NCBI RefSeq assembly: GCF_003334255.1 | Contig: NZ_QOWU01000238.1 | DNA length: 455 nucleotides | Direction: 5' to 3' (one strand) | Source of the DNA: Escherichia coli | Lineage (GTDB): Bacteria > Pseudomonadota > Gammaproteobacteria > Enterobacterales > Enterobacteriaceae | In this document: piece after piece, positions 1-455 of the stretch | Layout: each line of letters opens with the position of its first letter | How positions within the stretch are numbered: the first letter of the stretch is position 1 | The notes under the pieces: model-generated | What the model was told of the DNA's origin: nothing | The model's input: the letters and a program-made list of their open reading frames with translations, nothing else | The model's database searches: none | Program-made: the position numbers and the translations under genes

Positions 1-455
1 TCAGCACATGGCGGGGCTTCGTCTATGTGGCGTTCATCATTGATGTGTTTGCCGGATACATCGTGGGGTGGCGGGTCTCATCGTCCATGGAAACGACATT
101 CGTGCTGGATGCACTGGAGCAGGCGTTATGGGCCCGTCGACCGTCCGGCACGGTCCATCACAGTGATAAAGGTTCTCAGTATGTATCGCTGGCCTACACA
201 CAGCGGCTTAAGGAAGCCGGATTACTGGCATCAACAGGAAGTACAGGCGACTCGTATGACAACGCGATGGCGGAGAGCATCAATGGTCTTTACAAAGCGG
301 AGGTAATACACCGTAAGAGCTGGAAAAACCGTGCAGAAGTGGAACTGGCCACACTCACGTGGGTGGACTGGTATAACAATCGACGATTGCTGGAAAGGCT
401 GGGCCATACTCCTCCGGCAGAAGCAGAAAAAGCTTATTATGCTTCCATCGGAAAC
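1..455 (+). CDS. IS3-family transposase OrfB, DDE (rve) integrase catalytic domain; internal fragment, partial at both 5' and 3' ends
   Basis: Frame 3 (first full codon at 3..5) is open across the whole window and translates to [151 protein letters not shown]. It carries the IS3-family/retroviral-integrase signatures: 'HSDKGSQY' (second catalytic Asp, codon 165..167), '[16 protein letters not shown]' (catalytic Glu at 273..275, conserved Lys seven residues later at 294..296), and the C-terminal 'W(V/I)DWYN..RRL...G..PP.E.E..YY' block. Recognised from memory of IS3, IS629 and IS6110 OrfB sequences, not from a search. Confidence 0.9.
1..455 (+). mobile_element. Internal segment of an IS3-family insertion sequence (probably IS51 subgroup, IS629/IS1203/IS3411-like); no element ends within the window
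   Basis: The window is fully occupied by the transposase catalytic domain. Neither the IS terminal inverted repeats nor the orfA/orfB frameshift region are present, so the element boundaries lie outside the window on both sides. The subgroup assignment is from recalled motif patterns only. Confidence 0.8.

Follow-up and report, generated by a model that had tools for sequence, protein, structure and literature searches.

The present analysis revealed that the window, i.e., the whole 455-bp stretch of DNA analysed here, is almost certainly an internal orfB segment of the insertion sequence IS629, which the literature assigns to the IS51 subgroup of the IS3 family. Most of the catalytic core of the IS629 transposase (DDE, RNase H-like, rve) is encoded here. 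Alignment to the element in the phage record LC567824 (L003), annotated as mobile_element 'insertion sequence: IS3 family IS629' with IS629 OrfA and OrfB, placed the window at IS positions 796–1250 of the 1,310-bp IS629, with agreement at 452/455 bases (99.3%) in DNA and 99.3% in protein. The first-pass annotation had suggested that the window belongs to the IS629/IS1203/IS3411 cluster of the IS51 subgroup, and this proposal was borne out by the 100% identity of the window to full-length elements as well as by its 99.3% identity to the annotated IS629. Representatives were sampled across the identity range of the matches, and full-element differences were counted against L002 as the window-type element, as follows:

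L001, L002, and L004: 100% identity to the window
L007, an S. flexneri plasmid copy: 99.6% identity to the window
L003, annotated IS629: 99.3% identity to the window; 6/1,310 differences from L002
L005, the 'IS629 OrfB' gene of phage BP-4795: 99.1% identity to the window; 17/1,310 differences from L002 for the BP-4795 IS629
pO55 copy (subtype II): 98.9% identity to the window; 9/1,310 differences from L002
L008: 98.2% identity to the window; 27/1,310 differences from L002
L009, a ColV-plasmid copy: 95.4% identity to the window
L006, a pO157-like copy named 'IS3-like element IS1203 family transposase' by PGAP: 94.9% identity to the window; 50/1,310 differences from L002

Further relatives on E. 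coli plasmids (L010–L012) showed 92.7%, 85.6%, and 81.8% identity, respectively. Two of them, L011:1190–1713 (86%, beside the K88 fae fimbrial operon) and L012:411–1715 (75–82%), fell below the isoform range and probably belong to the IS3 subgroup of IS629 under other names. As for existing labels, the exact OrfB of the carrier element occurred under the cluster names 'IS629 transposase OrfB', 'Putative Transposase for IS629', and 'IS3-like element IS629 family transposase'. PGAP labelled the full-length exact-match copies merely 'IS3 family transposase', not 'IS629 family', and gave the IS629 label to a truncated exact-match copy and to the 5' half of an intron-split copy.

Translation of the plus strand uncovered that frame 3 (nt 3–455) runs without a stop through 151 aa, a stretch of open codons with a chance probability of (61/64)^151, or about 7e-4, while one stop occurred in frame 1 and many in frame 2. 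The three peptide motifs from which the first-pass annotation had argued were all present in this open frame, at nt 246–308, 333–389, and 411–443, and were backed by profile matches. The window protein matched NCBIfam NF033516 transpos_IS3 (IS3 family transposase, equivalog) with 177.6 bits (E = 4e-52), the C-terminal 151 aa alone exceeding the curated cut-off of 160 bits, and the Pfam families rve, rve_3, and rve_2 were matched as well. In addition, substitutions at codon positions 1/2/3 of frame 3 numbered 2/2/19 against an IS1203-type copy, 6/8/51 against L011, and 11/11/59 against L012, and their concentration at codon position 3 indicates that frame 3 is under selection. Neither a 93-aa ORF (25–306, frame 1) nor a 58-aa ORF on the minus strand was accepted as coding, the third-position bias being strong in frame 3 only. 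Inside the window, Rfam at the gathering threshold returned no RNA family, promoter and terminator scans returned 0 sites, as chance predicts, and no direct or inverted repeats were found; the GC content of 50–59% was unremarkable.

The coding sequence, its domains, and the putative catalytic residues are located as follows:

3–455, plus strand: partial orfB CDS of IS629, OrfB residues 141–291 of 296, IS positions 798–1250, open at both ends
6–251, plus strand: Pfam rve (integrase core, RNase H-like fold), residues 2–83, E = 1.4e-19
231–416, plus strand: Pfam rve_3 and overlapping rve_2, C-terminal part of the integrase core, residues 77–138, E = 5.7e-12 (rve_3) and 1e-6 (rve_2)
165–167, plus strand: GAT, predicted second catalytic Asp of the DDE triad, OrfB D195 in HHSDKGSQY
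273–275, plus strand: GAG, predicted catalytic Glu of the DDE triad, OrfB E231 in DNAMAES
294–296, plus strand: AAA, predicted conserved Lys, OrfB K238, seven residues past the catalytic Glu

Exactly 35 residues separate D195 from E231, and both the DD(35)E spacing and the K/R at +7 of the IS3-family DDE core were found in the window. We take D195 to be catalytic on the strength of this established IS3-family DD(35)E pattern. The first catalytic Asp corresponds to OrfB D136 in WVADFTYV, five codons before the window begins, and carriers identical to the window contain it.

The carriers identical to the window also supplied the remainder of the element. Their orfA occupies IS positions 55–381 and ends in an A6 run overlapping the orfB start, the run lying inside an ALIL pseudoknot (Rfam RF01497, 120 bits, L002:2041–2157). 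In L002, PGAP annotated a 1,214-nt 'IS3 family transposase, programmed frameshift' together with the ALIL pseudoknot. The element ends are imperfect inverted repeats starting TGAACCGCCCCGGG, of which the first 14 bp match at 14/14 positions and the first 25 at 23/25. Target duplications were ATA (L002 and L004), CTGG (L003), GTG (L006), CCT (L008), and CTT (L018). In the IS3 family, the terminal inverted repeats end 5'-TG...CA-3' and target duplications measure 3–4 bp.

IS629 was first described in Shigella sonnei and is abundant in E. coli, both in O157:H7 and in many other strains. Megablast recovered window matches in 4,139 of 5,426 complete E. coli genomes, at a median of 3 places per genome (maximum 49), and at least 1,838 records among these complete genomes matched at 99% or better. 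Matches were also present in 3,160 plasmid records, mainly those of Escherichia (2,848), Shigella (160), Salmonella (100), and Klebsiella (38). With 4,139 genomes and 3,160 plasmid records, the impression of a common enterobacterial IS, given in the first reading, proved sound. All 455 bases were matched at 100% on many chromosomes and plasmids of E. coli; complete 1,310-bp elements with this identity include L002:1706–3015, on plasmid p120899_146, and L004:623–1932.

Several individual copies deserve description in their own right. Plasmid p120899_146 carries a second IS629 copy (L002:3560–4817), inverted relative to L002:1706–3015, frameshifted, and without the last ~50 bp; the two copies flank a 435-nt 'transposase' gene in a possible composite arrangement. 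In AF017626 (L004:623–1932) from E. coli EC38, a phage 21-type integrase gene beside icd is split by a window-type IS629 with the duplication ATA, and the GenBank record gives 'int' only, as a joined pseudogene, with the IS unnamed. An exact-match IS629 at L001:2218–3015 is truncated at IS position 515 and lies between two inverted ISCro1 (IS66-family) elements; its neighbours, a SLATT-domain gene and part of a gene for a nucleotide-binding domain, may be what is left of a defence locus. Among the plasmid matches, H139–H145 represent a recurrent remnant covering window 1–332 only, with 97.3% identity and similar positions in many ~84–122 kb E. coli plasmids, which suggests a single old truncation inherited with the F-type plasmid backbone. 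The top-scoring match, H1 (NZ_CP122517.1:3652435–3652979), contained the 455-base query in two pieces across 545 bases, pointing to an internal duplication or insertion of ~90 bp in that copy.

The first base of the window coincides with the junction of a group II intron in other IS629 copies:

1–10, plus strand: 3'-exon side (+1 to +10) of a group II intron homing site, probably that of E.c.I4, as judged from intron-split copies and the literature

In L010, IS629 homology starts abruptly beside a group II intron maturase gene, and the base following the Rfam intron domains V/VI (L010:1114–1200) corresponds to window base 1, the intron part being L010:<1–1200. A full intron-split layout was observed in L018 and L019, consisting of IS629 1–795, a 2,270-bp intron (GTGTG...CTAC, with ltrA; L018:2381–4650 and L019:2381–4650), and IS629 796–1310, with the 3' IS629 part identical to the window in both. 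The contexts of these two copies are unrelated, L018 lying in a yhcG-like gene near nanK and L019 beside the aerobactin genes of O104:H4. E.c.I4 has been reported to retrohome at specific positions in the IS3-like transposase genes of IS629, IS911, ISEc16, and ISEc31 (PMC3522654), and the 2,270-bp intron is probably E.c.I4, a name taken from the description in that study rather than from a reference sequence.

A chimeric query composed of the 150 nt at the 3' end of the intron and window 1–150 matched at 100% over 300 nt in many genomes. The occupied junction, counted where at least 80% of the chimeric query was covered, was detected in 1,638 records and in 1,308 of the 5,426 complete E. coli genomes. 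Directly 5' of the window position, the sequence reads ...CTCTTACTCTAC at the intron 3' end and ...GATTTTACTTACG in uninterrupted IS629, and some genomes harbored both split and unsplit copies (e.g., CP025859; H151 and H183). We consider it slightly better than an even chance that the window represents the 3' exon of an IS629 copy carrying the 2,270-bp intron between positions 795 and 796, in which case transposase would be made only if the intron were spliced from the mRNA. In L018, L019, and L010, the intron is followed directly by window base 1, a coincidence expected in only ~1/1,310 cases if window starts were random within the element; six of the top exact window matches are intron-split copies (H4, H12, H13, H16, H18, and H19, versus H151–H156), and the abundance of chimeric-query matches and the documented homing of E.c.I4 into IS629 point in the same direction. 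Against this origin, the same 455 bases occur at 100% in the uninterrupted elements L002 and L004 and in L001, which is truncated elsewhere, and the uninterrupted junction is commoner, being present in 3,093 of the 5,426 complete E. coli genomes. Nor was a counterpart boundary feature detected at the 3' end of the window (IS position 1250), where every sampled copy runs on as GATGATCTGGCAGCCTGA. Because window base 1 coincides with the intron 3' splice junction, the source probably holds at least one intron-split IS629 copy. A repeat-collapsed contig from a genome with both split and unsplit copies would begin at this base, and a start at that branch point would explain the 5' boundary of the window.

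Only a few bases distinguish the window from other IS629 copies:

13, plus strand: diagnostic SNP from the copy comparison, G (CGG, Arg) versus A (CAG, Gln), OrfB Q144R, IS position 808
62–92, plus strand: synonymous pair, 62 = C (T in others) and 92 = A (G in others), relative to the annotated Stx-phage IS629 and pO55

At window position 13, A (Gln) was found in seven other IS629/IS1203 copies, the pO55 copy, and the distant relatives L011 and L012, G at this position being the sole base that sets the window apart from all of them. The window-type allele is nonetheless common, with about 5/60 evenly spaced plasmid matches exact and the exact OrfB present on 370 contigs. It was detected at independent insertion sites with their own target duplications (L002, L004, and L018), which argues that the window-type lineage has transposed. 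Q144R is located 13 nt downstream of the site of intron homing and eight residues beyond D136, the first catalytic Asp. It is improbable that it marks a functionally distinct IS629 lineage (with altered transposase activity, or with spread linked to the group II intron) and not a neutral polymorphism; since the allele has spread widely and is carried by intact as well as intron-split elements, Q144R is probably neutral.

Regarding the isoforms, the ISfinder convention sets the isoform boundary at about 90–95% or more identity in DNA and 95–98% or more in protein. The window showed near-identity to IS629, with 99.3% in DNA and protein to the depositor-annotated copy and 98.9% in DNA to pO55, where the naming of isoforms follows depositor and PGAP annotation and the published subtype scheme rather than the type sequences of IS629, IS1203, and IS3411. 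According to that scheme, IS1203 and IS3411 are isoforms of IS629; subtype I resembles IS1203 of O111:H-, subtype II occurs in O55:H7 and resembles Shigella IS629, and subtype III resembles IS629 of O26:H11 (PMC3271280). Subtypes I and II are ~4% apart (>55 bp), and the pO55 copy is placed in the Shigella-like subtype II (PMC3271280). The 50/1,310 differences from the IS1203-family copy fit this published separation.

It is very unlikely that the window belongs instead to the IS1203 isoform (pO157/O157:H7 subtype I). IS1203 is itself an isoform of IS629, and the PGAP-named IS1203-family copies reach 94.9% in DNA and 97.4% in protein, but the IS629-type copies lie at 98.9–100% in DNA. Within the window, 23/455 bases differ from the IS1203-family copy versus 0–5 from L002, L003, L005, L007, and pO55, and over the full element the differences are 50 versus 6–17. 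IS1203 was rejected as the best match on these counts, and the 94.9% identity indicates that the window is IS629 proper (Shigella/O55-like) and not IS1203.

The probable IS51-subgroup placement combines the sequence identity with IS629 and the published classification of IS629 in subgroup IS51 of the IS3 family (PMC10758439). For the resemblance to IS6110 suggested in the first-pass annotation, there is only a hint in that one source names the identical OrfA 'Insertion element IS6110 uncharacterized 12.0 kDa protein'. There is next to no chance that the window stems from another IS3-family subgroup (IS3, IS2, IS150, or IS407) or another DDE family such as IS481, as the window protein shares 99.3% identity with IS629 OrfB (97.4% with IS1203-family OrfB) versus 34.7%, 30.4%, and 25.5% with IS3 InsF, IS150 InsK, and IS2 InsD of E. 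coli K-12, respectively, and the weak secondary match to NCBIfam transpos_IS481 (47.5 bits), expected among related DDE cores, is far under the 224-bit cut-off. The IS3, IS150, and IS2 subgroups and IS481 were rejected on these protein identities and the sub-cut-off score. A better match in a different IS3 subgroup or family, which the first-pass annotation had named as grounds for abandoning its proposal, was not encountered among the matches and the IS3, IS150, and IS2 transposases compared.

Sequence comparison demonstrated the IS629 identity, the coordinates, and the predicted catalytic residues and, in copies 100% identical to the window, the putative frameshift signal, inverted repeats, and target duplications; the chemistry and pathway of transposition may be deduced by analogy with the IS629 and IS3-family literature. 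The active transposase of a complete element would be an OrfAB fusion, likely produced by -1 programmed ribosomal frameshifting at the A6 run at the orfA end, within the ALIL pseudoknot and upstream of the window. OrfAB would bind the imperfect terminal inverted repeats (TGAACCGCCCCGGG...) and move the element by copy-out-paste-in through a circular intermediate, and transposition would yield target duplications of 3–4 bp. The window lies in the interior of this system; the element ends, orfA, and the first Asp are all outside it.

IS629, one of the insertion sequences catalogued most thoroughly in E. coli and Shigella, is used to type O157:H7 strains and can inactivate genes, stx2 and gne being known examples. 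An IS629 fragment and group II intron homing into IS629 are both already known, and the value of the present result lies in annotation: the appropriate label for the window is 'IS629 orfB, partial', with the type given as Shigella/O55-like rather than IS1203. Its 5' boundary at the intron homing site is a warning that the source may hold an intron-split IS629 or that the window may be a repeat-collapsed assembly fragment.

Compared with known systems, the carriers are like IS629 in their 1,310-bp length, orfA/orfB layout, ALIL frameshift pseudoknot, inverted repeats, and target duplications of 3–4 bp; the window is 99.1–100% identical to annotated copies and departs from them by G at position 13 and two synonymous changes. 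The IS1203-type element is 96.2% identical over 1,310 bp, of equal length, and matching in inverted repeats and ORF layout, and would count as the same element species by the isoform convention; it differs in the window at 23 bases (19 of them at third positions) and by four amino acid changes, Q144R, V191I, Q207E, and E271G (OrfB numbering). IS3411 flanks the citrate-utilisation transposon Tn3411. It is an IS629 isoform according to PMC3271280. Finally, E.c.I4 has been reported in IS629, and the intron seen here sits between IS positions 795 and 796 in L018, L019, and L010, outside the window.
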